Position numbers and translations under genes: made by a program
Assembly: GCA_965285935.1 (NCBI GenBank)
Contig: OZ260666.1
Coordinates: 3,596,001-3,660,000 of the forward strand
DNA: 64,000 nt
Direction: 5' to 3'
Source of the DNA: Ophelia neglecta
Lineage: Eukaryota
Shown: piece after piece, positions 17,450-55,800 of the stretch
How the letters are laid out: the number at the start of each line of letters is the position of its first letter
Numbering within the stretch: the stretch's first letter is position 1
The notes under the pieces: model-generated
What the model was told of the DNA's origin: nothing
Databases searched by the model: none
The model's input: only the letters and a program-made list of their open reading frames with translations

Positions 17450-20400
17450 ATGATGGAGACCAAGTCGATCGTACTGCTGGTTTGTCTGTGCAAGGTAGAA
17501 GGTGTTATGACTGCACCATCGAGTGGTAAGTACTGGAATTTTATACACTGACGTATGTAGAATCTTAGAATCGACTTATGATTAGTCAAGAAGTGTACAC
17601 CAAGTCTCACTCATTCATCATGACTGATCGCTTTCAAGGGTATGTCGTTTTCCGACTATTATTCACATTGGAAGGGTGTTTTCGAATTTCAGCTTCTTCC
17701 GGCACAGTCACTAAAGTCACTAATAGAACCCTACAATTTGCAACTTCCACAGGCACAGTCATTCGAGTGAATATTGGCGACAACGCCACCTTGCGGTGGA
17801 AACTGCCGAAGGAAAATAGCATAGAGCTCACAAAATGTTATGACACGAACATGATCAACACATTTAACATTGTGAACATGACGGTGGTATTCAGGAGTGT
17901 TAATATGCGCCATGAGCCTCTCAGTTCAGGGACAAACGAGATCAGCCTAACGATGACATTGACAAATGTCACGAGAGAAGACGCTGGTTCGTACAACTGT
18001 CGTCGTACTAACTATAGTGAAACCAACACTGTTTTTGTCTGGGGTAAGTTCTCCTTTTGATTTTTCTTGACACTGACAGACCATGTGTCTCCTTCTTTTG
18101 TGCTTTTTTTGGCTACGTAAAAAACAATCTGTGAAGTAGTACATATATTGTCGGACTTTGGTTCTTAACCCTGAAAGAAATAGAATGTTATTTCTTTTTT
18201 TTTACCAGGTTCCTCTTATATCTATTCGTAACTGACTTTACAATCGTTGCAGTAATGTCCATCTTACCATATATAAGTATTTGATAAACCCTTAAATTAT
18301 ATTTTGATTAAGTCTCTCTTTCCCTTTGTTTGTGCGCCACTTTTTCTTTAAGGTAAAGAATTAGACAATGTAGAAAGAAGGAAAAGATTGCATACCCTAA
18401 CTTTTTGCATTATCAATACCATAAATTTAGTTACGATTGCTTCGTCAAGTTTCAGTATTGGATATACTTTTTTAATTATTAAAAGTTGAAACATCCTCAT
18501 GATTACACTACAGAAGACCACGTGAATTAATTTTTTCACATATTCAACTACTCATGGATAATACCAACCGTATATTTAAGATTTAAATTGTCTTAGCCAT
18601 ATTTTATACCTATGCCTTTCGCTCGGTCCATATGATTACATTTTCCGATTATTTTCAGGAAGACCTTTCCCAGCCCTAATAGATTCAGAGGGCTTTAAGT
18701 TGATGTGTAACGTCACTTCCACTTCTGTGCCAGAAGGCTTTCGAACTCCGATGGCTTACACTTGGTTAAGAGATGGCGCTGTTATCGGAAATACCTCGTT
18801 CGAATCTAACTATACGATTCCGATATGGAACATTATGAACCCGTTCCATAAATACTCCTGTCTAGGGAGAGAGAATGGCTCTACACTAGTGTCAGACTCA
18901 AGTAAGTAACACATACTGATCGTGCTTAGCAGCGTGGCTACCAAAACCCATGGAAGTCACAATGCACTGTTGGGTACCGAACGATAATTAACTAAGACGA
19001 GTAATGTGGATTTTACATCAGTTTCTGCAAGCATTGCTGAAACACCATTAAAATGAAACAGTTTAAACTTGGTTTAAGTCATCAAGTAATTTCAATTGAT
19101 ATATCGATGTTATGCGTTAACGATCCGATAATGAGTATGTTTTTTTTCAGGTGGTTTTGTGCAGCTTCCTGTTACCCCAGGCCTGCTGGTGATGATCACG
19201 GGATCCTGTGTCCTAACCTTACTACTTGTCTTAGTCATACTGCTCTGCTATCGACGTGAGTGTCTTGTCATATCTTCAACCTCGCATTTTATGTTTCAGA
19301 TTCCCTGTATAACGGAAATCGTGCTTAGTAAAATAGAATGCATACTCTGGGGATCAAATTATGTATAGAAGAGACATAATCATGCTTTTCGAAACCGTAG
19401 TGTGACATTCCGTACTTAGGAGTATGGGTGCAAAGGGTGAAGCTTTTCATCCGGGAAATCCATCAGGGCTACGCAGAATTTTAGTTACTTAGACTCTTAA
19501 TCAAAGATTGGACAGACCATAATTAAAGAATCATTCCATCAGTCCGTATTCCAAAAATAAGAAGGTCATATTTAGCATTTAAACGCTTCAACGCAAAGAG
19601 GCCCTTTTACAATACACGTGTTAAAGAAATCCCCACACAGCTTGTTTAAAAACAATGAAAGTAAACATAATAAACTACCTAGTATTACAAAATGCTAAGG
19701 TTCTTACTGTATTACATATTCGTTGATGTAGTTTACTAAATGGGTCAAGCATACTATCTAAGAAAATCAATATTTTAATGCACCAGTCTGAAATTAGCCA
19801 AATTTCTCTTTCATGCTACACAGTCTGATATAAATAGATCATATAAGATTTATTTCTCAATCAGATAATCACATCTTTATTTTGGTATAGAATCAAAACT
19901 AAGACAAGGAGACCGTCACCAGGCAGACAGCTTTCATGAACGAAGGCGTCGTCAGGAGTCATGCTGCTGTCACGAACAACGCTGCCGCCACGATCCAAAC
20001 TGTTGTCACCAGTCAAGGGGGCATCACGAGTCTGGCTGTCGTCACGAGGCACCCTGCCGTCACCGGCCACACTGCTGTCAGGAGCCATCGTGTGGTCACG
20101 ATCCACGCTGCGGTCAGGAGCAATCGTGTGGTCACCATCCACGCTGCGGTCAGGAGCCATCGTGTGGTCACGATCCACGCTGCGGTCAGGAGCCATCGTG
20201 TGGTCACCATCCACGCGGTGGTCAGGAGCCATCCTGCCATCACCAGCCATCCGGCCGTCAGGTAGATATCGATGATGATTACGACACGACCATGGTAGAG
20301 AACATCATGTTTGACCCTCAAATGGACGGTGAGCCGATATCCATAATTACTTTCCTTATCATACATTTATATTCATCCCCGGCACCTTTTACTGAATTTG

Positions 20401-20870
20401 GGTATAAATATTGTTTGAATATTAAGTGTGGGTGTACTGTATGGTTCAACAGCTGCAATAAATAACTTTTACCTCAAAGCTATTTCTGAGAAGAAGAGAT
20501 AAATGAGAGAATGCGCAGTGAGACCAGCTGAGCCACTGTCAGCGCACAATTGAATTTAAACTACATGCAAAAGTAGTTTTTAACTAAAAAATAAATATAA
20601 TACTAAGGACCAATATATCCCACGATATATTTTCATGGTATAAACATTTCGATTTGACAACCTTCTCTTCTCAAATTTCTGTTACAACTTTATTTCACTC
20701 GACGTCTTTCATTACAGTTAGAATACTGTTGCAAACTTATTGTTTTCCAAACAGAGGTCAGCGAGTTTGGACAGTCTAATACATTCAGACCTATCGCGTC
20801 CGGGTATTCCGAGGTTTGGGTGCCAGTACCTCCGCTATCTGGGAATACAGCCAGGCAAGGTGAGAAATGA
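17450..20870 (+). CDS. Gene B: two-Ig type-I receptor with Cys/His-rich repeat tail and ITIM-consensus motif (~442 aa)
   Basis: Phase-1 exons: 17450-17525 signal (MMETKSIVLLVCLCKVEG); 17693-18043 V-like (alternative in-phase acceptor 17753); 18659-18901 second Ig (LMC...YTWLRDG...YSC); 19151-19255 TM; 19891-20328 Cys/His repeat; 20755-20870 terminal exon (SGYSEVWVPVPP...*). Open frame throughout. Confidence 0.82.
19891..20328 (+). CDS. Gene B cytoplasmic Cys/His-rich hexapeptide repeat exon (36-bp higher-order repeat)
   Basis: tag acceptor ends 19890, gtgagc donor at 20329, 438 nt. Phase-1 frame reads ...CCCHEQRCRHDPNCCHQ...(CGQEPSCGHDPR)-type x4...; this frame is absent from the ORF track. 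Confidence 0.8.
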
Positions 20871-25992: not shown

Positions 25993-28900
25993 ATGGGGTC
26001 CGAGTTGATCGTCCTACTTCTATGTCTGTGCCATGTAGCAGATGTTATGACCGCACCAGCTAGTGGTAAGTACCGCACCACCTAGGGGTAAGTACCGCAC
26101 CAGCTAGTGGTAAGTACAGCACCAGCTAGGGTTAAGTACCGCACCACCTAGTGGTAAGTACCGCACCACCTAGTGGTAAGTACCACACCAGCTAGTGGTA
26201 AGTACCGCACCAGCTAGTGGTAAGTACCGCACCAGCTAGTGGTAAATACCGCACCAGCTAGTGTAATTTACCACACCAGCTAGTGGTAAGTTCCGCACCA
26301 GCTAGTGGTAAGAACCGCAACAGATAGTGGTAAGTACCGCGCTACCCAGTGGTAAGCACCGTGCCGCCTTTGTGGTAAGTACCCAACCACTTTGTGGTGA
26401 GTACCACGCCACCTTGTGTTAAGTACCCATCCATCTAGTGGTAAGAACCAGAATGGTGTAATGACTTGGGTTAGTAAGGTATTGGACGCCTTAATATGTC
26501 TGTGTTTAAAGGATAAAGATAAAGGTGTTTTCTGAATCATATTCACATTTGAAGAAGGCAAACATTATGAAGATGGATTTATTTATAACTTATAGAACCC
26601 TACAATGTGTAACTTCCACAGGTACAGTCACTCGAGTGAATATTGGCGACAACGCCATCCTGCGGTGGAAACTGCCGAAGGAAAATGACATAGAACCAAC
26701 AAAATGTTATGACACGAACAAGAACAACACATTTAACATTGTGAACATGACCGTGTTACCCAAGAGTGGTAACTTCAGCCTGGGCTTGTCTGAGCTTTTG
26801 AATGCAGGGAGAAACGAGATCAGCCTAACAATGACATTGACAAATGTGACGAGGGAAGACGCTGGTTCGTACAAATGTCGTCGTACTAGCTATAGTGAAA
26901 CCAACACTGTTTTTGTCTGGGGTAAGTTTCCTTTGGGTTTTTCCGTGGCCCTGAAAGACTATGTGTCCGATATTTTAATTGGCGACTGAAAAAACAATCA
27001 GTGAACTAGTAAATATATCGTCGTATTTTAGTATAAGTAAGACTTTCTTAATGATTTCTTTCATTAAATGTCTATTCCCGTTTATTTTCTTCATGGTGAA
27101 GAATAGGACAATGTAACTCTCCTTTTCTAGAAGGAAAAATAAATATGCAACCTCAAACGTGTTTAATAATCGATATGAAAATAAACTATACTTCGAGCCA
27201 CCCAGCAAACCATTAATCATAACATTTAGGTGTTCAAATATTTACTGTTTTATCATATATATCAAGTAGTATCTTTAAATTTTAAAATGGTCAAGTAACT
27301 GCTATATTTTATACTTATCGCCCTCACTGGGTGCGATGGAATGAATTCATATCATTATGTTTGCGTTGCAGGAAAACCAACTCCAGCCATAATTGATACA
27401 GAGGGTTTAAAATTAATGTGTGACGTCATTTCCACCTCTCTACCAGACTACGTTCGACCTCCGATGACTTACAGTTGGTTACGAGATGGCGCTTTAATCG
27501 GAAAAACCACGGATGAGTCTACCTATACGATACCCATACACAGCATATTTAACCCGTTCTCTGAATACTCCTGTCGAGGGAGGGAGTATGGCTCAAGTCT
27601 ACACTCAGACTCAAGTAGGCAAAACACATTAATAGTGGCTAGCAATATGGCTAAGCAAAACTGATTAAATTCATATCGACAACTTGCTATGGAACGCTTG
27701 TATATTGGCGAACAGGGTATATTTGTCCAATGTGCTGCAACCCGCTGCCAAAAGTACCAATTGGAAAGCTGATAAATCCTTTGTCGTGCACGAGGGGCGG
27801 AGAGGTGGGAATTACAGTCTATTAAGAGGTCGATCCCAAGTTTCGGAAATACTCCTGCCCCCCCCCCCCAACCCCGCAACTTGTATAGGGAGTATGTTAA
27901 TCGTATGGTCAATATTAACATTACACACTATTTTGAACAATATACAAACGAGTTCTGCTATAATCCGCTTGCAGAACAGGATTGTCTACAACTTTCCTAC
28001 CCCCGACCCCCCCCCCCCCCCCGCCACATACCCTCCCCAACCCTTCCAACCAATATCTATGTTTTATCCTGCAATTGATTCCAATGTAACGATCGTTTGT
28101 GTTTATTATACGAATATGAGCGTTTGTGTTTTAGGTGGCTCTGTACGGCTTCCTGTCTCTCCAAGACTGGTGGCGACAATCGCAGGATTTTGTGCCATAA
28201 CAATCCTTACACTACTTGTCGCACTATCCTGCTGTCAACGTGAGTGTATTTTCATTTCTTCAAAGTTAAGCACGTGTTCATATGCATTAAACTCCCTTGA
28301 TATCATCGCAACCGTATCTCAATATTATAAATAACATTACTTGAGGGACTGACATAACAAGAATTCACAAAGATCTATTAGACTAAAGTTTAACACTGCT
28401 TTTATATTACATGTACATAATATAATATTATCTTACTGCCATTTTATCTTACACTATCTCGGCGCATCAAATTGTTATCTTTCCGAATCAAATAATCTTA
28501 TTTTAATTTTGTTCTAGATTCAAAACAAAGAAAGCGAGCTGCATCAAGTTCCGTCACAAACGAACACGATCGTCAGAAGTCAGGTTGTCGTCACGAGAAA
28601 CGCGACCGACACGAGCCAGGCTGCCAACACGAACCCATCTGTCGTCAGAAGTCAGGCTGCCATCATGAACCTATCTGTCGTCAGAAGTCAGGCTGCCATC
28701 ATGAACCCATCTGTCGTCAGAAGTCAGGTTGCCATCACGAACAACGCTGCCATCATAGCCAAAGCCGTCACGAATCAAGCTACAATCAAGCACCTAGTTG
28801 TTGTCACGAGGAAGGTTGCCGACCTAATCCCCGCTGTCTTCAAGAGACACTCAGCCGTCATGAGTCAAACCCCCATCTGGAGACGACACTCCATGGTAAC

Positions 28901-29324
28901 GAGCCGCCCAACCGTCAGAACAATGATGAACATGTTGAGAGCATCACGGTAGAGAAGAGCGCCACGTTTCAGCCTCAATTGGAGGGTGAGTTTAAGGCCA
29001 TTATTTGACCGGCTAGTATAGTGAAGTGTTTCCGCGAGCTCTCATTATCCTGCCTGACATCCCCATTTGTCAGACTATTCCACTGACTAAATCAAGCGTC
29101 CAATATCCTTCAAACTTCTTTACTTTTGCGTTAAAACTATTCTTTCACAATAATCGAAACTTCCTAGATGAATTAATTAATGTTTCTTCATTTTCTAATT
29201 CGTGTCTTAACCACCAGAGGCCAGCGAGGGACAGCCTAGCACAGTCTTACCTACAGAAGTTCGATATTCATTTGTTTGGGTACCACGACCTCCGCCTTGT
29301 GTGCAGAAAGCGACCCAAAAATGA
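25993..29324 (+). CDS. Gene C: paralog of gene B; two Ig domains, TM, Cys/His repeat tail, ITIM-consensus motif (~431 aa)
   Basis: Phase-1 exons: 25993-26065 signal (MGSELIVLLLCLCHVAD); 26622-26921 V-like; 27372-27614 second Ig; 28135-28239 TM; 28518-28985 Cys/His repeat; 29218-29324 terminal exon (VRYSFVWVPRPPP...*). AATAAA at 29346. Exon sizes 243 and 105 are identical to gene B. Confidence 0.82.
26050..26448 (+). repeat. 22-bp minisatellite (accgcaccagctagtg|gtaagt) derived from gene C's signal-exon end and splice donor, ~18 units
   Basis: The first unit is the true exon end plus GTAAGT; later units degrade toward 26448. Confidence 0.92.
28518..28985 (+). CDS. Gene C cytoplasmic Cys/His-rich repeat exon
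   Basis: 468 nt, phase 1-1; reads ...GCRHEKRDRHEPGCQHEPI(CRQKSGCHHEPI)-type x3...CCHEEGC...; gtgagt donor. Confidence 0.8.
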
Positions 29325-40087: not shown

Positions 40088-43000
40088 ATGACATATAATA
40101 TATCAAAGACACCGGTGATCCCCGCAGTCTTATGCTTGTTTATACTGCCACTCCCATATATCGCCGCCTCGTCAAAAAGCGAAGGTAGGTTCACTGTTAA
40201 CAATTTTCACTCGTAACATACGAATATTTGTTTCCTGATAAGCCTTTGGGGGGGGGGGGGGGGAGGGCAATAATACCTAAAACTATAATACTGGAACAAA
40301 TTCAATACAAACCAAATGTGTTGGCTTATCCTACATTGCCTATTTATCCCTTAGGGTTATTAGGCAAAAAGAAAATCACAAGTCCAACGATTTTGGCTTT
40401 CACTGTCTAACATTCCGTTTGCTAGCACAATGCGCCGGTCATCCCTGACTACAGATAACCGACAGATCCAATGGACGTTCTCTTTTTAATATAACGCTGT
40501 GCGGTGCAATTGTTTCCTTTTGATCCTCATTCTTAACATTTTCATGGTCTATTTAAATTTCCAGTATGGCTCAAGCGTCCCGGCCAAGTGTACGCTTGTG
40601 TTGGGTACACTGCTAAACTACTCTGGAACTACAACCACAGCTTGGGAGAGTTTGATTCAGTATACTTCCACAAGGTTCGCCCAGATTGGAGATTCCTGCT
40701 TGGTATGAACTGGGACGGTGAGTTTTCGGTTAACATGCCGAGGGCTAACCTGGTTGAAGGCAGCACTTATGGGCTGTCGTTGGCGGGAATAGTGATGGAA
40801 GACAGCGGAATATATGAAATAGAAGTTTACCTGCAGCGCCCTTCCAAGGTGATTCACAACCAAGCAGAACTAATCGTGCTTATCCCATCAGGTACAGCCA
40901 AAATTTAAAAATTTCGTAACGGCTTACAAACTTAACACGATCATGTTATTATTATTGTTTTATATGTATATATAAACATGCACTCTACATTTGCCTTTGT
41001 GTCTTTCAGCATGCCCCGATCGACACCGATTTCAGCAGCCAGTCATCACAATAAGAGAGGCAATAGGCGGGTCGGGCAATGTAATACACATATATAATAA
41101 CACACTGGAGGTGCCCCGGCCAGTGAATGTCAGCCTCATTGTTGCCATACCAGCAGCCGACCCGCCTGTTACATGTACTATAACCCTGGAGGGAGTCCAC
41201 ATCCATACCTGCGAAGGGGGGTCAGACAATGTGGTTGAATGCGAGAAGAAATTCGCTCTAGGTCAAGGTCAACATCAGACAATAACCCTAAACCTGACCT
41301 TCATAGCCTACGAACCCAGCATTACAACACTTCATGTGTACACCAAACCAGGTATGCGGACTTCATTGAAGATAATATTTTGTTATGACCAAGTCGAGAA
41401 CTCACCGGGTCACCCATGTTATTATTGGCAGGGCGAGTGACATGATAATCCGACGGCCATCCAATCTCCTTAATACTAGACACACCCTTGTAACATCATC
41501 TTGACTATATCAATGATTTTGCATTGACAAACTCTTGCGAATGAGTGAAACAAAGTTAAATGAGTATGCGCGTTCTTAATGACCCCTAGCTCGGCCTCTT
41601 ATAGGTTATAGTTCAGCCTTACCAATGAAGGAAGCCTATCACACAACATTATTAAGCGCAATATGAGTATGAGGAGAGGGTATAAAAACCAATCAAGATC
41701 AAAGGTTTTACCAACTATAGAGATATGTCTATGGGCAAGATAGAATTTGAGTCTAATCATGATATAGTTATGTCCATTAACGATCACAAGGTGTCAAATC
41801 AAGCCATAATTACACATTCATTTTAAATAGTCCGCTATTTGTTGGCATATGCGGCTTTAAATACAAGCCAGGCTTTTGCCCGGCATGTTTTGTAATTTTT
41901 TTCGCATCTTTTAAAATAACCTATTTTTTATAATCACATGTCAGTCGCCCCAGATGGCCCTAGATATGACCAAGCGTCAACACAACACCTGGATACGGAT
42001 TCCTCAGTATCAACACCAACCACGGTGCTCTTATGGTCTAGCACTGTGACCCAGCAAGAGAATACTACTTCAGCCAACGAGACAGCTTATTGGTTGGACA
42101 CCAGAGGGCGCAGTATGACGACAGGGGAGGTGTCAGTTATCGCGATCTGTGCCATAGCGCCCCTTTCAATTCTGGGTGTGACCGTAGTTATGTACGTTAT
42201 ATGGAATCGTCACAGAACGGAAAAAGGACATCAGTCTAAGGTAATTATGCCTCCACTAGCGCAATAGTTAAGTTTGAGTTTCACAGCTGTGGCTTTATTT
42301 GCAGTCACGCTAATAAAACATAACATGAAAATTCCAAGTCTTTTTAAATCAAAAGTCCGCTTTTATTTTTCGGTTATCAAACTGATTTTCAATCACTGGT
42401 CTAACCAAAACTAGTCAGCATCTACTTTTTCCATAAATAACATAAATACTGTGACCTAGTCCTAGGTGAGAAATGTTAACGACCTGTCCGATCGTAAACA
42501 AAGAGCAGACACAATAAGTTTATCGCTATGGGCAGTCATTTTGAAGTTGTCTTGTTTACTGTAAACCAAGAAATATTCACTAACAGGAAAACTTTCCTTA
42601 TCTGAATAATTCTAAGTAGTGACTTCCTGTGAAACAAGCTACAGAAGGAGATAGCAAAGAGGCAACTTCCACGAGCAGGAAATATTTGTTATGATCGCGA
42701 AATTTTCATGGTCGCGATATTTTTGTGATTTTAAAAACGCCCATAGCACGAAACATGGACCATGAAAGTACCATCTTAGACAGTTTATGTGATATTGGAC
42801 ATCCTTTATCCGTTTAAACTTAATGCAATTATATTTTTAGCAGGACGCCGATTATGGAGATGGGGTAAATTGTCGACATCCAGATAAAAACGCCCTATCT
42901 ATGTCTACTACTGAAACTACTGAGGAGCCTGGCAGCCCACCACAAGCCCCGCCACATCACTCGGCTCGAACAAACACGTCTGAGAGAAATCCGCCTGACG

Positions 43001-46000
43001 TCAATGTAACAAATGACAGTATACAACCAGCCCACTCGTCTTATGAAAACGAGACACCACCGACAGTCCCACTTCTCAGCAACGATACCCCTGAACAATC
43101 AAATGTAGAAATAGACAGGGAAACCCCTGACTTATTAGTGAGTAATTCATTTTTAAATATTCAACCAATAAACAGATTAATTGTAGTTGCTAGCGAACAC
43201 ATGCATTACTTCAATTAACTTCTCGTGGTAACGTGTGCATTAACAATATTGGGATGCGATGTTGGTGTAATGGTGGGACGATAAACAAAGAGCAGACACA
43301 ATAAGTTTATCGCAATGGCCAGTCTTTTTGAAGTTGTCTCGTTTACTGTAAACCAATAAATATTCACTAACAGGAAAACTTTCCTGATCAGATTTCACCA
43401 TATATCGCTTACATGCAATTTTGTGACTGAATAATTCTAAGTAGTGACTTCCTGTGAAACATAAGGTACAGAAGGAGAAAGCAATGAGGCAACTTCCACG
43501 AGCAGGTAATATTTGTTATGATCGCAAAATTTACATGGTCGCGATAATTTTGTGATTTTTCAATCACTGGTCTAACCAAAACTAGTCAGCATCTACTTTT
43601 TCCATAAATAACATAAATACTGTGACCTAGTCCTAGGTGAGAAGTGTTAACGACCTGTCCGATCGTAAACAAAGAGCAGACACAATAAGTTTATCGCTAT
43701 GGGCAGTCATTTTGAAGTTGTCTTGTTTACTGTAAACCAAGAAATATTCACTAACAGGAAAACTTTCCTTATCAGATTTCACCATATATTGCTTACATGC
43801 AATTTTGTGACTGAATAATTCTAAGTAGTGACTTCCTGTGAAACAAGCTACAGAAGGAGATAGCAAAGAGGCAACTTCCACGAGCAGGACATATTTGTTA
43901 TGATTGCAAAATTTTCATGGTCGCGATATTTTTATGATTTTAAAAACGCCCATAGCACGAAACATGGACCATGAAAGTACCATCTTAGACACTTTATGTG
44001 ATATTGGACATCCTTTATCCGTTTAAACTTAATGCAATTATATTTCAGCAGGACGCCGATTATGGAGATGGGGTAAATTGTCGACACCCAGATAAAAACG
44101 CCCTATCTATGTCTACTACTGAAACTACTGAGGAGCCTGGCAGCCCACCACAAGCCCCGCCACATCACTCGGCTCGAACAAACACGTCTGAGAGAAATCC
44201 GCCTGACGTCAACGTAACAAATGACAGAATACAGCCAGCCCACTTGTCTTATGAAAACGAGACACCACCGACAGTCCCACTTCTCAGCAACGATACCCCT
44301 GAACAATCAAATGTAGAAATAGACAGGGAAACCCCTGACTTATTAGTGAGTAATTCATTTTTAAATATTCAACCAATAAACAGATTAATTGTAGTTGCTA
44401 GCGAACACATGCATTACTTCATTTAACTTCTCGTGGTAACGTGTGCATTAACAATATTGGGATGCGATGTTGGTGTAATGGTGGGACGATAAACAAAGAG
44501 CAGACACAATAAGTTTATCGCTATGGGCAGTCATTTTGAAGTTGTCTCGTTTACTGTAAACCAAGAAATATTCATTAACAGGAAAACTTTCCTGATCAGA
44601 TTTCACCATATATCGCTTACATGCAATTTTGTGACTGAATAATTCTAAGTAGTGACTTCCTGTGAAACATAAGCTACAGAAGGAGATAGCAAAGAGGCAA
44701 CTTCCACGAGCAGGAAATATTTGTTATGATTGCAAAATTTTCATGGTCGCGATATTTTTATGATTTTAAAAACGCCCATAGCACGAAACATGGACCATGA
44801 AAGTACCATCTTAGACAGTTTATGTGATATTGGACATCCTTTATCCGTTTAAACTTAATGCAATTATATTTCAGCAGGACGCCGATGATGGACAAGGGGT
44901 AAATTGTCGACACCCAGATGAGGACGTCATATCTATGTCTACTACTGAAGAGCCTGGCAGCCCACCACGAGCCCCGCCACGTCACTCGGCTCGAACAAAC
45001 ACGTCTGAGAGAAATCCGCCTGAGGTCAACGTAACAAATGACAGTATACAACCAGCCCACTTGTCTTGTGACAACGAGACACCACCGACAGTCCCACTTC
45101 TCAGCAACGATACCCCGGAACAATCAAACGTAGAAATAGACAGGGAAACCCCTGACTTGTTAGTGAGTAATTCATTTTTAAATATTCAATCAATAAACAG
45201 ATTAATTGTAGTTGCTAGCGAACACATGCATTACTTCATTTAACTTCTCGTGGTAACGTGTGCATTAACAATATTGGGATGCGATATTGGTGTAATGGTG
45301 GGACGATGAACGAACAGCTGCATAGAATTTGGAAAAATGTCTTGGATGAAAATTAATAATTACTAAATTAAGAATAAAGAATGTATCGGCTGGACGCTGC
45401 CAGCTGACCAACACATTAAATTCAAACAAAAGACTAGTATAAAAGGCGCAGGCAACACCAGAGCTCGTGTTATGGTTATGAAAAACGAACGTAAGCGTGA
45501 AATTCCACCATTCTTTCGGTCCCTGATAAATATAACGTATTAGAATGCATCTAAAAAAAGTTAGCAAGACAAATGTGAAGCCAGCCCTTTAACAACAAAG
45601 TGAGCACCATTAAGATGCAACTACAGTAAGTGAACCAATTTGACAAATGTAGAAGATATTGAGCACCTTTCCTTTCGATATTGAGGGACACCTGTTTGGC
45701 GGGACAGTACCATAAACATCGTCAGGAGTTTATGCACTGTTGTTAAACCCTGCGTGTCTATATTAGATCAAAAGGTCATAATTATTATTGAGTCTGTCTA
45801 TTTTCTACAGGTAAAAGAATTTGCAAGACAACCAGAACATGGTATAGGCGAACAACACCCAACAGAAACGACAACTCCTTCCAATTCCAGCCTGAAAGAT
45901 TATCCGTCCCTGTTTGATTCCCTGTCAAAAGGTCATCTGACTCCACCAGATACCGTAACGGGACTGATACAGCAGAAGTCCTTGCCAGAACATTCTTCGT

Positions 46001-47313
46001 ACGGGTCAGATACAGAGGCAGGGGATCATCCGTCCAAATTAGATAACGAACTGGGAAAAGGAAGTGCGCTCCATTTAGGTTCAGAGTCAGGAAGTCACAC
46101 GTCTCAGCCATCTTGTTTGCCTCCGTCGAGTTCCGCATCAGAAGGCCGTTCGTCCCATTTGAAATCCTTGAAGGGGGGTCGAACATATCTGTCAAATTCC
46201 GTGCGAGGAGAATGTACATCTCAGCCGGCTTTAAGACAAGAAGATCGCCCGAACAAGCCAGTTTCTAGGCAAAAACGTCGTCCGGAAGATCGTCCGTTAC
46301 AGTCAGATTCAGGAAATGGAGATCATCAGTCACTGACGGGGTCAGGATCAGGGGATCGTCCATCACAGCCAGGGTCAGTAGCAGGGGACCGTGCGTCACA
46401 GCCAGGTTTGGGACCAGGGAACCGTGCATCACAAACATGTTTAGGACCAAAAGATCGTTCGTTCAATCCAAGTTCAGTGGCAGAATATCGTCAGACAAAA
46501 CCAGCTACAAGCCAACGAGTCGCGACACACCTATGGTCAGCAACAGGAGACTGTCCGTCACCAACAGGGTCAGGATTAGGCGATAATCAGTCACGGGAAG
46601 GTTTCAGACAGGGAGAGCTTGCGCCACAGCCAGGGTTAGAACAAGGAGATTGCCCGTCACAGTCAGGATCAAGCCCAGGGGATGCAACGTCACAGCCAGG
46701 TTCAGGACCAGGAGATCATGCTTCACAGCCTGGGTCAGCACAAGGAGATACTTCGTCAAAACAAGGTCCGAGATTAGGAAATCAATCCTCACAGCCAGGT
46801 TTAGGAACAGGAAATCGTTCGTCACAGCCAGAGTCAGGGTTATACGTCTGTCCTTCAGAGACAAGCGCAGGACCAGGAGAGAATCCTGTGTCAAGGTCAG
46901 GTTTAGAGCAAAAAACTAGTCCGCCACAGCAACCGTCAGGACTAGAAGATCTTCGCTCCAGGCCGTTTGCAGGACAAGAAGTCCGCCAGCCACAGCCAGT
47001 TTCAGGATCAGGCGGCCGTCCGTCTATGTCGGATTCTTATCCCGGAAAGGATCCATCCCAATCGAAATCCAAATCAGAAGAATGTCCATTTGTACGATCG
47101 GTTACTACGAAGGATGCAGCCATGGGCGGCATATTAGCACACCGCATCTCATTCATTGCCAAGAAGCCTCCAGGAGCCCCTAATCAAGATAAGGTTATTG
47201 AAATGCTACCACAAGACCCTTCTTCGACTGACACGGATATTCCCACCACTATCAATACTTCTCCAACAGCCCCAGGTAAAACAGAAGGTTTGTTAACGGT
47301 TAGTAAAGAATAA
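40088..47313 (+). CDS. Gene E: type-I receptor with Cys-less V-like domain, second beta-rich domain, Ser/Thr stalk, TM and long low-complexity tail (~1148 aa if all exons are used)
   Basis: 40088-40184 signal (PAVLCLFILPLPYIAA); 40565-40891 (GYTAKLLWNY...EDSGIYEIEV); 41010-41351; 41945-42240 stalk+TM (VSVIAICAIAPLSILGVTVVMYVIW); phase-0 exons 42841-43137, 44049-44345, 44875-45162; 45811-47313 G/S/P/Q-rich. Phases are compatible. Confidence 0.72.
42390..45306 (+). repeat. Recent tandem array of ~0.8-1.2 kb units, each carrying a ~297-nt coding exon
   Basis: Near-identical introns and exons; exon starts are 1208 and 826 bp apart. Confidence 0.93.
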
Positions 47314-47368
47314 GTAAGCTTTAGGGAACAAGACCCTTTGATCACGGACACGACCACACAACGCCCAG

Positions 47369-47990
47369 ATGAGCATTAACCCGGGAGATGAACTGAAAGT
47401 ATTCAACCATGAAGTCTTGTCCCTAGCTCACCTTGCCTGCATACATGGCGAAATCCCAGCCATTGGAAAAAAAACTGTAGGAATACAGGTACCGACGTTA
47501 ACGCTATGGAAACGCTTGGTTACACCCCGCTGGATTTGGCAGCAACCCACGGACATTCAAACGTAGTGGAATATCTTATGAAAATAGGAGCTAATGTGGA
47601 TCTCTCCTCGACAGACGCATTTACTCCATTACACTTGGCGTCGAGTGAAGGTCACCTAGAGGTCGTTGATGTGCTTTGTCTGGCGGGAGCAAATCTTTAT
47701 ACAGAAAGTCAAAGATTTACTCCCATCGGAATTGCCTCGGCGAAGGGACACCTACAGGCTTAATCAAAAAAGGAGCTGATTTGATTCGTGCTGGTATTGG
47801 GGGTAATACCCCTTTACAGCTTGTTACCAAGGAAGGTCTTGGAGAGGTTGTTTGCCTTTTACACAATTCGGGTGCCGATATGATTAAACTCAACCAGAAC
47901 AAAAGCTCAGCTTTGGACATCACTTTAGAAAGGAGTCATAATGACATTTTTGAATTTCTCTCTGCCAAGGGGGCTGTTGCAAATGTTTAG
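47369..47990 (+). pseudogene. Six ankyrin repeats broken by frameshifts, directly downstream of gene E's stop
   Basis: LAHLACIHGE / TPLDLAATHGHSNVVEYLMKIGANVD / TPLHLASSEGHLEVVDVLCLAGAN / TPIGIASAKGH / TPLQLVTKEG / SALDITLERSHNDIFEFL, spread over three ORF segments; shifts near 47470 (A-run) and 47760. Confidence 0.85.
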
Positions 47991-49949
47991 GTTTCATGGA
48001 ATTTACCGGAGAATCTTTCATGATTATGATCATTAGCACAAATATAATATACCCAATTAAATTATTTTCAATAGTTGAATGAATCATTCTCTAGTTTAAA
48101 ATACATAACTAAACTCCGAAGATAGTTTCCTTCGTTAGACCTGTTATATCTATAACTACTCCAACAAACCAGCCCGATGGGTTAACTCCATAGAAATAAC
48201 ACATATACAACAGTAATTATTGTTTTTCTATGGTTATTAGCACCAGATTTTATTATTATTTGTATGAAGCTACTAAGCGATACACCATAATGCTGTAAAA
48301 ATACCATTGCGCACCATGTACTCTAGATATGATCTCTAGGTAATTTTGCAATAAATATGTCATCTTTGACTGATCATCAGTTTATTACTAAATTGTTCAA
48401 CCTATATTATTTTATATGAAGAACACAGCTGTTTACAAGTTAGTTTGTCTTCTTCTACATGTATTTTTCTCTCGTATGGAAACACTCTATTGTTTAAGCT
48501 TTAACTAGTATGTGGTAATATTCATTTAAGTATACTTATATAAAACGTGAACTAACATTCATCGACTGATGAATTAATTATGCCTTGAATGACTAATTAT
48601 GCCATGAATGTACTCAATTTATGTATAGAAACTGTGTGTATCATTGTAAGATGATTACAAACATTGCTGTTAATCTCACCACAATATGGAATCTTTGTCG
48701 TTGGTAGACTTTTCTTTGCTGCTGTATGAATACAATGATGATTACGTGAGTAGACTCATTGCCCCCGCATTGTAAAGCGCGGATTGCCGACACGTTTAGA
48801 AATAGTGACGCGCATGATGCCGGAATCGAAACGACAGAACTAAAAATTTATGCAACATTGAAACTTAATTTTACCAAAGAATGTAGTAACTCTATATTCT
48901 AAACTTGCTTAACAATTATCCGCATTTTTTCCGAAGACGTCGCATTTATACTCTGCCGTAAGCATGCCAATGATATATATGATGGCTTTGGCCATAGATT
49001 TCCTTACTTGGTATTCTTTCGTTCGGCATTAAGCTGCTAGTATTAACAACGCCTTCAAGAGTTATACATTTTAAATATTTTATAGCGCAGAGTTATTTCA
49101 ATTATTTGTGACAGAAAACATGCGACTTTAACATTGTCTATGTGTCGAAACTATGCGCTTGAAATATGAGAATTTGTTGATCGAGCATTTCTGATTTAAA
49201 TCATCGAAATTATTTATAGGCCCACTCGATAGAGCAGTAGTTATTTTAAGGTATTTGTTTGCATTGATTAACACCGCTATCAAATAAAATAACAAACGGC
49301 AACTTCTTTAGAAGTGATATAATATCATCCTTTTTATGTTTTTCCAGTAATATAATACATAAAAATGATTCAAAACAGTATCATAGCAAACATAAAATCA
49401 ACTTTAAACATATTTAAACAAGAGAAAACGCAATATATTGTCTAAGCACAATAATGTAAAATGAAACAAAAATGTACAACACAACTTTTCAAATAAATGT
49501 AATTTCCCATTAATATTATTGGTAAATGCCTCTTATAAATACAATAGTAATTTTTCTGAATATTTTTCTCTTTCATCCAGAAAGATGATGTATTAGTGTT
49601 CCCCGTAGTTGAACTTACTTATTGATTTTATTTTATATATATGATTTAACCAAATTACTTATTCTAAGCTTGGCAATATGTATTCACATGTTATTTTATG
49701 CAAATCTATACCTTCTGAGTCTATTTCGTCTCTTTCAATTCAATTTCATTGCCCAAAAATAGAACAAATATTATGACAAACTCCCAAAGTAATATATATA
49801 TATATAATATTCAAATATTATAATACACCGGAAAAATGCTACATGATATGTTTTTAAATATATAGAATATATTAATCAGAAGGACAAGAAAACAATGGCT
49901 TTTAGGTCCTCAATAAATGCGGCAATATTCATTTCAAGCAGAGTTGAAA

Positions 49950-51200: not shown

Positions 51201-51414
51201 CCATGTTTTTTACCTCACTACACGCCGCTCAAATGGCGATTTTGGATTGTTTTTCTTCTTCATCGATATGCTTTTCACTTTAATATACATATGCTACACA
51301 CGCACTTCAAAGCATGTACACACATGATACACGATGACTTTAATATTCCCCAGTTCAACACACTACGCGTACTTTTTTAACAACAATTGACATTATTGAG
51401 TATTGTTTTGATGG

Positions 51415-52808
51415 TTGTGCGCATGCTCGGTGATGGAAGCTGCCTTTCATTTCAATGAGAATATTATTGAAAATATTACGGATACCAACAGAGAGACAAA
51501 GAAAAGACAAAGACAGGACGCTTCTAATACCAGTGAAACTTCATTCCAGGTTAGGAAAAGGCTTAATTTTAACGACACAGTAATAGAAATGAATCCTGCG
51601 CACCACACTGACCAAAATGTAAAGGCGGTATTGGCCATTGTGAAAGGTACGCAAGCCACCCTACATGAATACAATAGGCGCGTGACACTCCTTGAACAAT
51701 GGTCTGTACAACAGCAACAAATGAATGACCACATACATCGAGCAATCAGTGTTATGGAATACAAACTGCTTGACCTGGAAGCACGCTCACGAAGGCTTAA
51801 TCTTATCTTCCATAACACAAGGGAGGAAGGACACCGAGAAAACACCAGGGATGTGCTGGCATCGTATTTCTCCGTAGATTTGGGCCTTTCTGACGCTCAG
51901 GTAGAAAGCATTGTTATCCAGCGTTCTCACCGTCTAGGGGCATCGAGGGGAAGGGCACGCCCGATCATTGCGTGTTTCCGTGATGAATGGGCTGTCAACA
52001 ATATTCTAGACGCTGCCCGCACAAGACATAAGGAAAAGGAGATTTCAAAAGACCTGCCGAAAGTAATAAGGGATGCTAAAAGTGTCTCCTTCCCAAGATG
52101 CACGAGGCAAGAAGAAGAGGAAATCATGCTGTAATTAGGTTTCCAGCTGCACTCGTGGTGGATTCAGTGGTTGTGATTGACTGCTTTCATGGATTCCGAA
52201 ACACTGGCCAGGCAAATTTCATGGCTACATCAACCCCAATAAGGGAGCTTCCCGAGACAAGTTGGCACCGTGGTCCTTCCGGTGCTGCAGGTGTGGCGGC
52301 ATTTTCTCCTCCGCAGCAGCCATTACAACAGCAGACAATAGGATTTCCGCAAAATGCCTACAGGCCTGTTAATTATTATGGACCATACGACGCATCAATC
52401 CAACAGACGAGACCATGCTATGGGACTCAGCGTCCACAACTACCCTACCAAACCATTTATAGCAGGGCGGCAAGACCCACAACTGGACCTGTTATGCCAC
52501 CTCCGCTGATTGCTCATCGTGCTCCGGGTATGATCCCGGCCGACCGTCCTGTAACTGCGTCTGTCAACCTAGCGGGCAATCAACAGTTTGCTGCGCCCAG
52601 GCCAAATGCCACATCATCATCAGTAATGAGGAGTACGAGTGAAGGACAAACAGTCCCTGTCTCCACTGGCATACGGACACAGCAGAATGATCTTCTGCAT
52701 GAAACACAGGAGGCGGGTCCTTCGGCTGATGGCGGTACGGGAACAGTCAACCCGCCAGTGGGAGATCAAGGCCTTCCTCCCGACACCGGACAGCCGCGGG
52801 CAGTGTAG
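51415..52808 (+). pseudogene. LINE ORF1-like (coiled coil + RRM-like region), frameshifted near 52090
   Basis: DLEARSRRLNLIFH...IQRSHRLG...RPIIACF...ISKDLPKVIR, continuing in another frame as ARRRGNHAVIRFPAALVVD, then Pro/Gln-rich. Confidence 0.75.
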
Positions 52809-52829
52809 CTGCCACAATCAGTAACCGAT

Positions 52830-55800
52830 CTGTCCTTCCTGGTCTGGAATATCAGAGGTCTTGCAACGAAAACTTACTCCAAGATTTTAGATCCCCAGTT
52901 CTTGGAGATTGTGGATCAATCTGACATCTTGTTGTTCACCGAAACATGGAGCAATGATTTGCAAAACCTGGACATTCCCGGATATGACGCAGTTTATAGA
53001 GAAGAACTTAACCCGAGAGCAAAAAGGTTTTCAGGTGGTATTGCCGTTTATTTTCAGTCGCAACTGGCGAAGGGAATAACAATTCTAAAAAAAGTAAAAG
53101 ATTGTATATTATGGTAAAAACTGTCTAAAGTATATTTTGTTGGTGATAAAGACATTTTGATTGCTCTGATTTATAATGTCCCTCAGGACTCGACTAGAGC
53201 TCCAGACTCACCAAATGTTTTTGCTTTGTTGGAGTCCCATATTGCAGAGTTCGAAAGTGTACAACCAGATACATATGTATATATTGTGACTGGGGACTTT
53301 AACGCCAGAACTGGGGTATTGAATGATTTTATTCGATTCGATAATAATTCTTCTGATCATATACTGCTGCCCGAAGAGTATGCTGATGATTCTACCTTAC
53401 CAAGAACTTCAATGGATGTTACTGTTAATAATTATGGGCACAGGTTACTAGATCTGTGTTGTGCTACCGGCCTCCGTATTGCAAACGGTCGGCTTGGGAA
53501 TGATAAAGATTGTGGTAAATATACATATATAGGTGGAGTCGGAGCAAGTGTTATAGATTATGTACTGTGTATGCAGTCAGATTTTGCTCTGTTCTCTAGT
53601 TTTTCTGTAGGTGACCCAAATGTTATGAGTGACCATAGCCCTCTTAAATTTGAATTTAAAAAATTGGGTAATAAGCCGGAGAGTAAACCTGCAGTGATGA
53701 GTACTAAATTAGCTTGGAATTCAGAATGTGTAGGTCAATTTAGAGCCTCATTAAATAGTGCTCTCGGTAGTTTAAATCATATAGTTAACTCCAATCATAG
53801 CATTGACATACAGGTTACTAAATATACAGATAAATTACTTGATGTCGCGCTGCCTCTTCTCGGTAAACAAATCCGGCCACATGCTGTACGAACTACACCA
53901 GTTATTGATACTCCTGCGTGGATGTGCAATAAATGCAAGCTCTTGCGAGATGAATTTCATGAAAAGCTTGATTTATATAGACAGAATAGTATCGAAGATA
54001 TTCGGGCGAATTTGAGATTGGCTAGATCTAAATACTCTAAGCACGCTGATATTTGTAAAAATAAACATAGCGTAGGTCAAACAAAATCATTGCTAGATGC
54101 CCGTAAGAATAATGCCAGATTATACTGGAAAATGTTGAAAGGTTCAGCTAGTCGTGTTTACCCAAACATTGAAATGGCTGAATTCTATAATTTCTTCAAA
54201 ACTATTTCTAACCCCCCAAACATTGAAGACTTCGAGATTGCTGATGAATATAACTCATTTGTGCAAGACTATGTAAGAGATGAGTCTATGTTTAGTGAAT
54301 TGGATACGGAGATATCTGTAAGTGAGATTCTGTCAGCGATTTGGCAGCTTAAGGCTGGTAAGGCGGCAGGGCCCGACTTACTGATTAATGAACTATTCAT
54401 TTATGCAGATGAGTTGGTACCGTCGTTGCAGGGGCTCTTTAACAATATCTTGAGTGCTGGTGACTTTCCGTCCTCTTGGACAGATGGTATCATTTTACCC
54501 ATCCATAAGAAGGGCTCTTTACACCAAGCTGAAAACTATCGTGGGATAACGTTACTTAGCGTACTGGCAAAGCTGTTCACTCGCATTCTTAACAATCGCC
54601 TGACTTCTTGGGCAGAGGAGTATGGGGTGTATATCGAAGGTCAGGCAGGCTTCCGTGCTGGCTATGGTACAATAGACAATTTATTTGTTCTGCATGGGCT
54701 TATATCAAATTATTTGAATTCTAAAAAACAATTATACTGCTGCTTTATTGACTTCCGTAAAGCCTTTGATTATGTCAATAGAAATGGTCTATGGTATAAA
54801 CTCATAAAGTCAGGAATTTCTGGCAAGCTTTTTAATGTTATAAAAAGCATGTATTCTTGTGTTAAATCAGCTGTTCGGTCCTTGACTGGGGAAATTAGTG
54901 AGTCGTTCGAATGTTTATTAGGCGTCCGTCAAGGCGAAAGCCTCTCTCCATTTTTATTCTCTATTTACATTAATGATCTTGATCATGAATTATCTAATAG
55001 CCAACAACCCACAGGAATAAGCATTGATTATATTAAGCTCTATTTACTTCTGTATGCTGACGATGCCGTCATATTGGCAGATATGACGGAGGGTCTGCAA
55101 TCACGACTGAATACACTAGAAACATATTGTGAAACATGGAAATTGAAGTTAAGCACAGAAAAAACTAAAGTGGTAATTTTTAGAAAAGGGGGTAGGTTAC
55201 CGGGGAATCTGGGGTTCAAGTATAAAACAGCAAAATTAGAAGTAGTCTCGAACTTTTCTTATTTGGGTTTAGTCTTACCAGCGGGCGGCTCTTGGACGGC
55301 AGCCCAGGAGACCCTGGCGAAGCAGGCCACGAAAGCAGTTTTTTGTTTGAAAAAATATACATATAGATATAACATGAGCCCCAAAGACATGTGCTCTTTA
55401 TTTGATAAATTAGTTCTTCCTGTTTTAAACTATTCCTCTGAACTATGGGGCTTTCATCGGGGGGTGAATGTAGAGAGGGTTCATCTCAAATTTTTATAAA
55501 AGTATCTTAAACTTAAAAGACAGAACAAAGAATGAAATGGCTTATGGGGAGCTTAATCGGTTTCCTTTACAAATTAATAGGTACCTTAATATAATTAAAT
55601 TGTGGCTTAAACTGATTCAAGTAGGTGGTAATAAGCTAATGCAGAAAGTCTATTGAATGTTATACAGCAGAATACAGCAGGATAATTGGGCCAGTAAAGT
55701 AAAATATCTTCTGTTCAAATACGGTTTCGGAGAAGCTTGGCTGAATCAAGGTGTTGCCGATGTAAAACAATTTATAGTGTTATTTAAACAGAGACTCTTT

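Follow-up and report, generated by a model that had tools for sequence, protein, structure and literature searches.

We propose, with a probability of a little under 0.6, that the gene called here gene E belongs to a birth-and-death family of receptors, probably immune, in which a few intact copies would signal through intracellular ankyrin repeats and many clipped copies, gene E among them, are likely decoys. The gene lies in a window from Ophelia neglecta, the window being the whole 64-kb stretch of DNA that was analysed, and its ankyrin module has been cut off by a stop codon and has since decayed. The clipped state is the majority state of a large family, and the loss of the ankyrins has recurred by separate routes in close copies of the gene.

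The model of gene E has eight exons, all with AG/GT ends, which join into one frame of 1145 aa that is open throughout; the intron phases are 1,1,1,0,0,0,0. The initial annotation had placed the end of the long last exon at 47311-47313, about 55 nt before the ankyrin repeats, and the model agrees, with a TAA at that position and the ankyrin segment beginning 55 nt further on. The features are as follows.

40088..40184, plus strand: exon 1, with the start codon, a predicted signal peptide (called by eye from a hydrophobic stretch) and a phase-1 donor.
40565..40891, plus strand: exon 2, a V-set-like domain without the usual B/F-strand cysteine pair.
41010..41351, plus strand: exon 3, a predicted Ig-like beta-sandwich with 3 invariant cysteines in the alignment.
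41945..42240, plus strand: exon 4, a Ser/Thr-rich stalk, a transmembrane (TM) helix at aa 318-342, basic stop-transfer residues and a phase-0 donor.
42844..43137, plus strand: exon 5a, cytoplasmic, low-complexity, phase 0-0, the first of 3 tandem copies.
44052..44345, plus strand: exon 5b, 98% identical to 5a.
44878..45162, plus strand: exon 5c, 90% identical to 5a.
45811..47313, plus strand: coding part of the last exon, a 500-aa Ser/Pro/Gly-rich linker with 11-aa repeats that ends in the TAA at 47311-47313.
47288..47318, ends approximate, plus strand: stop-bearing insertion, 30 nt in gene E and common to 14 of 18 ankyrin-bearing copies.
47369..47990, plus strand: what is left of six ankyrin repeats, sharing an exon with the linker and now predicted to be 3' untranslated, with the ancestral TAG at 47988-47990.
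48056..48061, plus strand: candidate polyadenylation signal ATTAAA, putative, downstream of gene E.

Together, the cytoplasmic exons give a low-complexity, Ser/Pro/Gly-rich tail of 803 aa. It contains two YEN and four TRAF2-like motifs, all of them short and without conservation across copies. The number of copies of exon 5 ranges from 0 to 4 in the paralogues.

The closest relatives of gene E are its neighbours. A DNA search of the source genome with gene E returned 20 matches; 18 are full-length, have 85-100% identity and lie at 3.06-4.00 Mb on the same contig. We took the region from 3.02 to 4.05 Mb gap-free and modelled 26 close copies in it, 22 on the plus strand and 4 on the minus strand (names such as c3061 give the position in kb). 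Exon 1 was recovered in all 26, and 25 of the models are open through the TM helix. Three of the 26 are open from exon 1 through all six repeats, namely c3061 and c3935 (1185 aa each) and c3799 (1158 aa), although c3799 has AAG at the start position and would have to begin at Met7, which lies in frame seven codons downstream. The linker and the six repeats share the last exon in each of the three, and because these copies read open through all repeats in that one exon, the Ig-TM-ankyrin fusion is real at the DNA level. The initial annotation had postulated an ancestral Ig-TM-linker-ANK receptor and had recommended a search for paralogues with an intact fusion; c3061, c3935 and c3799 are such forms, present in the same genome as predicted models. 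Their existence also speaks against the converse idea, that the ankyrin segment is an independent gene or transposon piece with no fused homologue.

The stop of gene E comes from a 30-nt insertion at about 47288. All 14 plus-strand copies with ankyrin DNA carry the insertion and none of the four minus-strand copies with ankyrin DNA does; it measures 30 nt in the five-copy clade of gene E and 29 nt in the nine others. Later lesions are nested within the insertion carriers, with a 10-nt loss in 10 copies, 11-nt and 1-nt losses confined to the clade of gene E, and further lesions elsewhere, plus two nonsense codons. This nesting pattern is what a single origin of the insertion may have left behind; in a tree of the ankyrin DNA the four insertion-free copies do not form one supported clade. 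The tail was lost in other ways too: c3403 has an in-frame TAA in its linker, and eight copies lack ankyrin DNA altogether, the deletion junction being visible in six of these. A few copies are broken further upstream, by a stop in the V exon of c3770 (a clipped copy), a shift in the TM exon of c3861 and the absence of domain 2 from c3369. The clipped copies examined keep a tail of 444-803 aa open, and three copies retain only about 150 aa of the last exon.

In gene E itself the remnant is split over three reading frames, and Pfam Ank_2 still matches its middle piece (E=2.3e-20) and its last piece (E=4.6e-4). The two frameshifts that had been read from the sequence prove to be losses of 1 nt near 47473 and of 10 nt near 47757, and there is an 11-nt deletion at about 47349 besides. 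The ankyrins had also been described as having no gene start of their own, which fits the paralogues: the ATG at 47369 corresponds to an internal codon of the four intact segments, ATG in two and TTG in two. Rescue of the ankyrins by splicing was rejected, as an exhaustive single-splice scan from the last exon gives at most 116 aa and fewer than three whole repeats.

A check of the raw reads at 47311, about 47470 and about 47760 had been advised, and read-derived contigs span 47311, 47473 and 47757 gap-free. These contigs come from three runs of one sample, which may be the assembly's own; the runs behave as DNA, since introns are covered and splice joints are absent. The gene had been called "truncated or mis-assembled". 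The truncation stands, and assembly error is excluded because the lesions occur in the read-derived contigs and are common to other copies. The intact state rests on the assembly, because the run pieces listed include no bridging piece for the intact linker-ankyrin junction.

Are the clipped copies still genes? Among the 14 of them, all 13 indels upstream of the stop are multiples of three; in the remnant, one of six is (Fisher p=0.0005, or 0.002 if a frameshift in the repeat array of c3995 is counted as upstream). The upstream count covers the aligned unique coding parts before the stop, with repeat arrays otherwise left out, and consists of 12 indels from the alignment and an 18-nt V insertion in c3121. 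The two ectodomains have 66 amino-acid-changing and 40 silent variants, the remnant 102 and 20 (p=0.0003, each variant being taken as one event and transition bias ignored). Over its first 140 codons the linker appears neutral, with pN/pS of 0.85-1.04 in all groups. For the four intact ankyrin segments purifying selection is not significant alone (0.68, p=0.18), and the comparison with the 12-copy clipped clade gives p=0.037. Because upstream indels keep the frame and those of the remnant mostly do not, we consider it probable that the clipped copies are still translated.

Exchange between copies complicates this picture. The start of the last exon of c3748 is 99.5% identical to that of the intact c3061, and gene E is a mosaic, with a V domain 99% identical to those of c3748, c3703 and c3464 and a remnant 99% identical to those of c3442, c3721 and c3676. 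Its V domain and domain 2 are thus closest to one set of copies and its linker and remnant to another; ectodomains have been swapped between tail types. Gene conversion or unequal crossover is evident from these alignments, and some of the upstream constraint may for that reason be a legacy of, or an import from, intact copies.

The two extracellular domains had been labelled "Ig" from the sequence. The label holds by way of paralogues and fold; neither of the two domains of gene E itself is matched by a Pfam Ig family. Gene E's V domain lacks a Pfam V-set match, and among four distant V domains one is matched above the cut-off (L134, E=5.8e-9), two below it and one not at all. The family V profile matches JAML with E=4.5e-5. 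Domain 1 has no B-F strand disulfide: a single cysteine (C11) is invariant, and Trp20 and a G-x-Y-x-Ile motif stand at the expected sites, the B and F cysteine positions being those that we take to be canonical for V-sets. By the Pfam matches of paralogues and the family profile, domain 1 is V-set-like. Domain 2 has an all-beta AlphaFold model (pLDDT 88.7) that aligns with ICAM-2 domain 2 (VIA; Z 8.7, rmsd 2.9, 95 residues aligned), in a tie with non-IgSF sandwiches. Seventeen chains reach Z>=8, including ICAM-2, VCAM-1, CEACAM5 and CHIR-AB1; Pfam Ig matches (V, I, C1, C2) are absent, and the tied top structural rows include bacterial sandwiches. The model is that of an Ig-like sandwich of unassigned set. 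The V domain has a variable patch at residues 45-56; an overall excess of amino-acid change was not found in the ectodomains (0.44-0.54), and pathogen-driven diversification is therefore not shown.

Other features of the window deserve mention. Exons of two other Ig-domain genes lie at 17569-18057 and 26510-26986 on the plus strand, with Pfam ig above the cut-off and no match to the V profile of gene E, and His/Cys/Gln-rich repeat frames follow such exons at 19869-20462 and 28496-29005. A weak match to the family V profile at 2070-2438 on the plus strand (E=4.5e-4 within the window's frames) is possibly a distant member. A LINE-type element occupies 51412-55496 on the plus strand, with a coiled-coil ORF1-like frame and an endonuclease/reverse-transcriptase frame.

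The family extends well beyond the close copies. The V exon has at least 133 matches in the genome (150 of 182 candidates scored), 129 of them on this contig at 3-19 Mb. We picked distant genes with a V exon upstream of an ankyrin frame, which is not a random sample; in all 17 of them V, domain 2 and the ankyrin exon succeed one another in that order within 10 kb, and 15 have an identified TM exon. A detailed check of 12 genes (11 of those picked and L144) gave phases that match those of gene E, the last-exon acceptor of L130 being unplaced. Retroelement frames sit between the TM exon and the last exon in introns of the distant members L116 and L118 and in L132-L133. At G000:C9:3256655-3259441, a V exon with a stop is followed by some 27 tandem units of 96 nt that arose by amplification of part of a domain-2 exon.

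Seven distant genes at 4.5-5.0 Mb join the ankyrins to a further domain in one frame of 810-867 aa. Its profile matches cGLR1 (8gjy, E=3e-9), its model (pLDDT 74.3) finds cGAS with Foldseek (E=2.6e-10, TM-score 0.57 on the target), and Pfam Mab-21_C is below the cut-off; a single-sequence PDB search with the region gave nothing, the match coming from the profile alone. The model indicates a cGAS/Mab-21 fold, with a nucleotidyltransferase (NTase) core and a helical bundle. The ankyrin-cGLR exon of L117 begins 356 nt after the TM donor and needs an upstream exon because its first Met falls after the repeats. The genes L121-L124 are broken between the ankyrins and the cGAS-like domain, L140 and L144 have the domain without ankyrins, and the subfamily of gene E has no such domain. 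The active-site motif of cGLRs, h[QT]GS..[DE]h[DE]h..h[DE]h, is described in excerpts of Li et al. (10.1101/2023.02.22.529553, PMC9980059). Its second and third acids are kept in none of the five Ig-linked rows of our alignment A4, all three acids are kept in six of the nine rows without a V exon in the fetched stretch, and L116 and L119 also lack the acids of the motif. As aligned, the Ig-linked cGAS-like domains appear to be without catalytic acids. A tree of V and domain 2 (24 rows) leaves the deep order unsettled and decides neither gain nor loss of the cGAS-like domain in the lineage of gene E.

The source genome has at least 143 matches to the cGAS-like domain, and many of them fall within very long ankyrin frames. 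At 12.6-13.0 Mb, giant ankyrin-cGLR frames lie close to V exons; they were considered as parts of the same genes and rejected, and are probably separate genes, because the nearest exon after the TM is an ankyrin exon of about 310 aa with its own stop. Single frames of 1600-5300 aa (L136:778-7482, L145:3478-8346, L150 and L155, on C9 and C1) hold long ankyrin arrays around 1-2 cGAS-like domains, and L145 and L150 retain the acidic motif, which makes them candidate active cGLRs. Dozens of cGAS-like frames stand in tandem at G000:C5:107.4-108.8 Mb (L148); the frame examined retains the acidic motif and has a long aromatic-rich repeat at its end.

Outside this genome, word-indexed protein searches with the V exon and A4 (each against longer proteins) and with the cGAS-like region gave nothing at E<=0.001, which are weak negatives. 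None of the best 150 of 175 V-domain profile hits carries a match to ankyrin repeats or to the cGAS-like domain; the closest ones include many single-exon fragments, which limits what they say about fusion in other species. One of these 150, P0122 (524 aa, another source), combines V, domain 2, a TM helix and an ankyrin-free tail. The only named V-domain match among 10 looked up comes from a gastropod.

How might such a family work? Ankyrin arrays are docking surfaces for proteins. In intact receptors the V domain would most likely bind a ligand, and the repeats would recruit cytoplasmic partners. The stop-bearing insertion in 14 copies cut off the repeats, which then decayed, and the rest of gene E would still be translated into a membrane receptor. 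Clipped copies would bind similar ligands without the ankyrin module and so compete with, or dampen, the three intact copies; gene E is a likely decoy or damper because the ligand would be bound without that module. We infer splicing, expression, ankyrin signalling and the decoy role, and also the immune or self/non-self setting, the immune part from the cluster size, the turnover, the exchange of ectodomains, the V patch at 45-56 and the cGAS-like modules. One point against a decoy is the 800-aa tail, which a decoy does not obviously need. A wider and rather doubtful reading is that one V/Ig-like ectodomain has been wired, on the scale of a chromosome arm, to interchangeable modules from neighbouring ankyrin-cGLR genes; the tail types would be ankyrin only, ankyrin with a dead cGAS-like domain, a dead cGAS-like domain only, and none. 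Recognition might then feed cGLR-STING-type immunity by docking, with clipped copies as decoys that set a threshold.

The clipped copies could instead be passengers of 6-20 kb segmental duplications, too young or too often converted to have broken upstream, so that only the three intact genes matter. Duplicated blocks of that size at 97.5-99.5% identity across the region, conversion from intact copies, the neutral-looking linker and the copies already broken upstream (c3770, c3861 and c3369) all fit such neutral birth and death. We nevertheless find it unlikely, as the remnants have diverged from one another by up to about 6-8% and have gathered seven distinct disabling changes (five frameshifts and two stops) in 627 nt, and 13 of the 14 copies are open for 786-1145 aa up to the insertion. 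An active role for what is left of the tail, with clipped receptors that signal or scaffold through a linker whose length is tuned by exon-5 duplication and the number of 11-aa repeats, seems improbable to us. In its favour, the clipped copies examined hold open a tail of 444-803 aa, the copy number of exon 5 varies from 0 to 4 and gene E has its YEN and TRAF2-like motifs, but these motifs are short and unconserved, the start of the linker is neutral and three copies have only about 150 aa of the last exon.

We give little credence to a Notch-like mode, in which intact members are cleaved in the membrane, release the ankyrin domain to the nucleus and leave gene E as a dead version. The single-pass topology and the six intracellular repeats invite the thought; EGF/LNR matches and the WxP (RAM) motif are absent, however, and the protein stops right after repeat 6. 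Hardly credible at all is the view that the assembly is wrong here, or that the ankyrins behind gene E belong to an independent gene or to a transposon fragment. Mis-assembly is conceivable among near-identical neighbours and the runs may be from the assembly's own sample, yet identical lesions recur in four other copies and in the read-derived contigs, and in three paralogues a single open frame runs through linker and repeats.

The family that we favour, with few signalling copies and many likely decoys, bears on the open question of how invertebrates without antibodies build large recognition repertoires and make them signal. It offers a signalling layout that we did not find in the full-text literature covered, an Ig ectodomain with ankyrin repeats and in some members a cGAS-like domain. 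Its natural series of intact and clipped copies that have exchanged ectodomains also lets a decoy or paired-receptor model be put to the test. Even if the clipped copies should turn out silent, the architecture would still be unusual and the family a clear example of birth and death.

Notch is a single-pass receptor with an intracellular ankyrin array, and this much it has in common with the family of gene E. Its ectodomain is of the EGF/LNR type and ours Ig-type, with no EGF/LNR Pfam match on the ectodomain exons, and the family forms a multi-copy, fast-evolving cluster. The parallels with Notch and IkB drawn in the initial annotation hold as a resemblance, that of intracellular ankyrins, and not as membership: of seven tails examined, three of them intact, none has a RAM WxP after the TM, none of the seven has the IkB degron DSGxxS, and IkB is soluble whereas our models have a TM helix. 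By its motifs the family belongs to neither.

Vertebrate KIR, LILR/PIR, CEACAM and Siglec families pair ITIM receptors with ITAM or adaptor-binding TMs. They share with the gene E family tandem expansion, exchange of ectodomains by conversion and similar ectodomains on different tails. They differ in the switch, which here is the presence or absence of a folded ankyrin module, with clipped and intact copies at 22 to 3. We found no ITAM or ITIM in the tail of gene E, and the sole ITIM-like match in intact copies sits inside an ankyrin repeat.

The distant paralogues share the cGAS fold and the ankyrin fusion with cGLRs, and ANK-cGLR fusions are already described in excerpts of Li et al. (10.1101/2023.02.22.529553, PMC9980059). 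The domain differs here in lying behind predicted V, Ig-like and TM exons and in its lack of the acidic motif. The supplement excerpts of PMC9980059 contain no immunoglobulin-domain or transmembrane term, the two-letter "Ig" being outside that search. Membrane-anchored Mab-21-domain proteins with a signal peptide or TM helix are known from the DANGER/Mab-21 superfamily (excerpts of PMC1784063), where an Ig ectodomain or ankyrin array is not described and the excerpted text has neither "ank" nor "immunoglobulin". Within the full-text literature, judged by titles and abstract openings and with subscription papers outside its scope, we found no description of an Ig-TM-ANK or Ig-TM-ANK-cGLR receptor.

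The Alr cluster of Hydractinia is another clustered invertebrate family of single-pass V-set receptors, likened here by description and not by sequence. Excerpts of PMC9546547 describe a V-set first domain, Ig domains without the core disulfide, one domain per exon and a single TM pass, with genes and pseudogenes mixed in the cluster and tails that vary more than ectodomains. According to the same excerpts, Alr differs in its ITAM/ITIM tails and in an Fn3-like spacer before the TM, and "ankyrin" there refers to the Shark kinase. By analogy, the gene E family would work most like these clustered Ig receptor families with variable tails.
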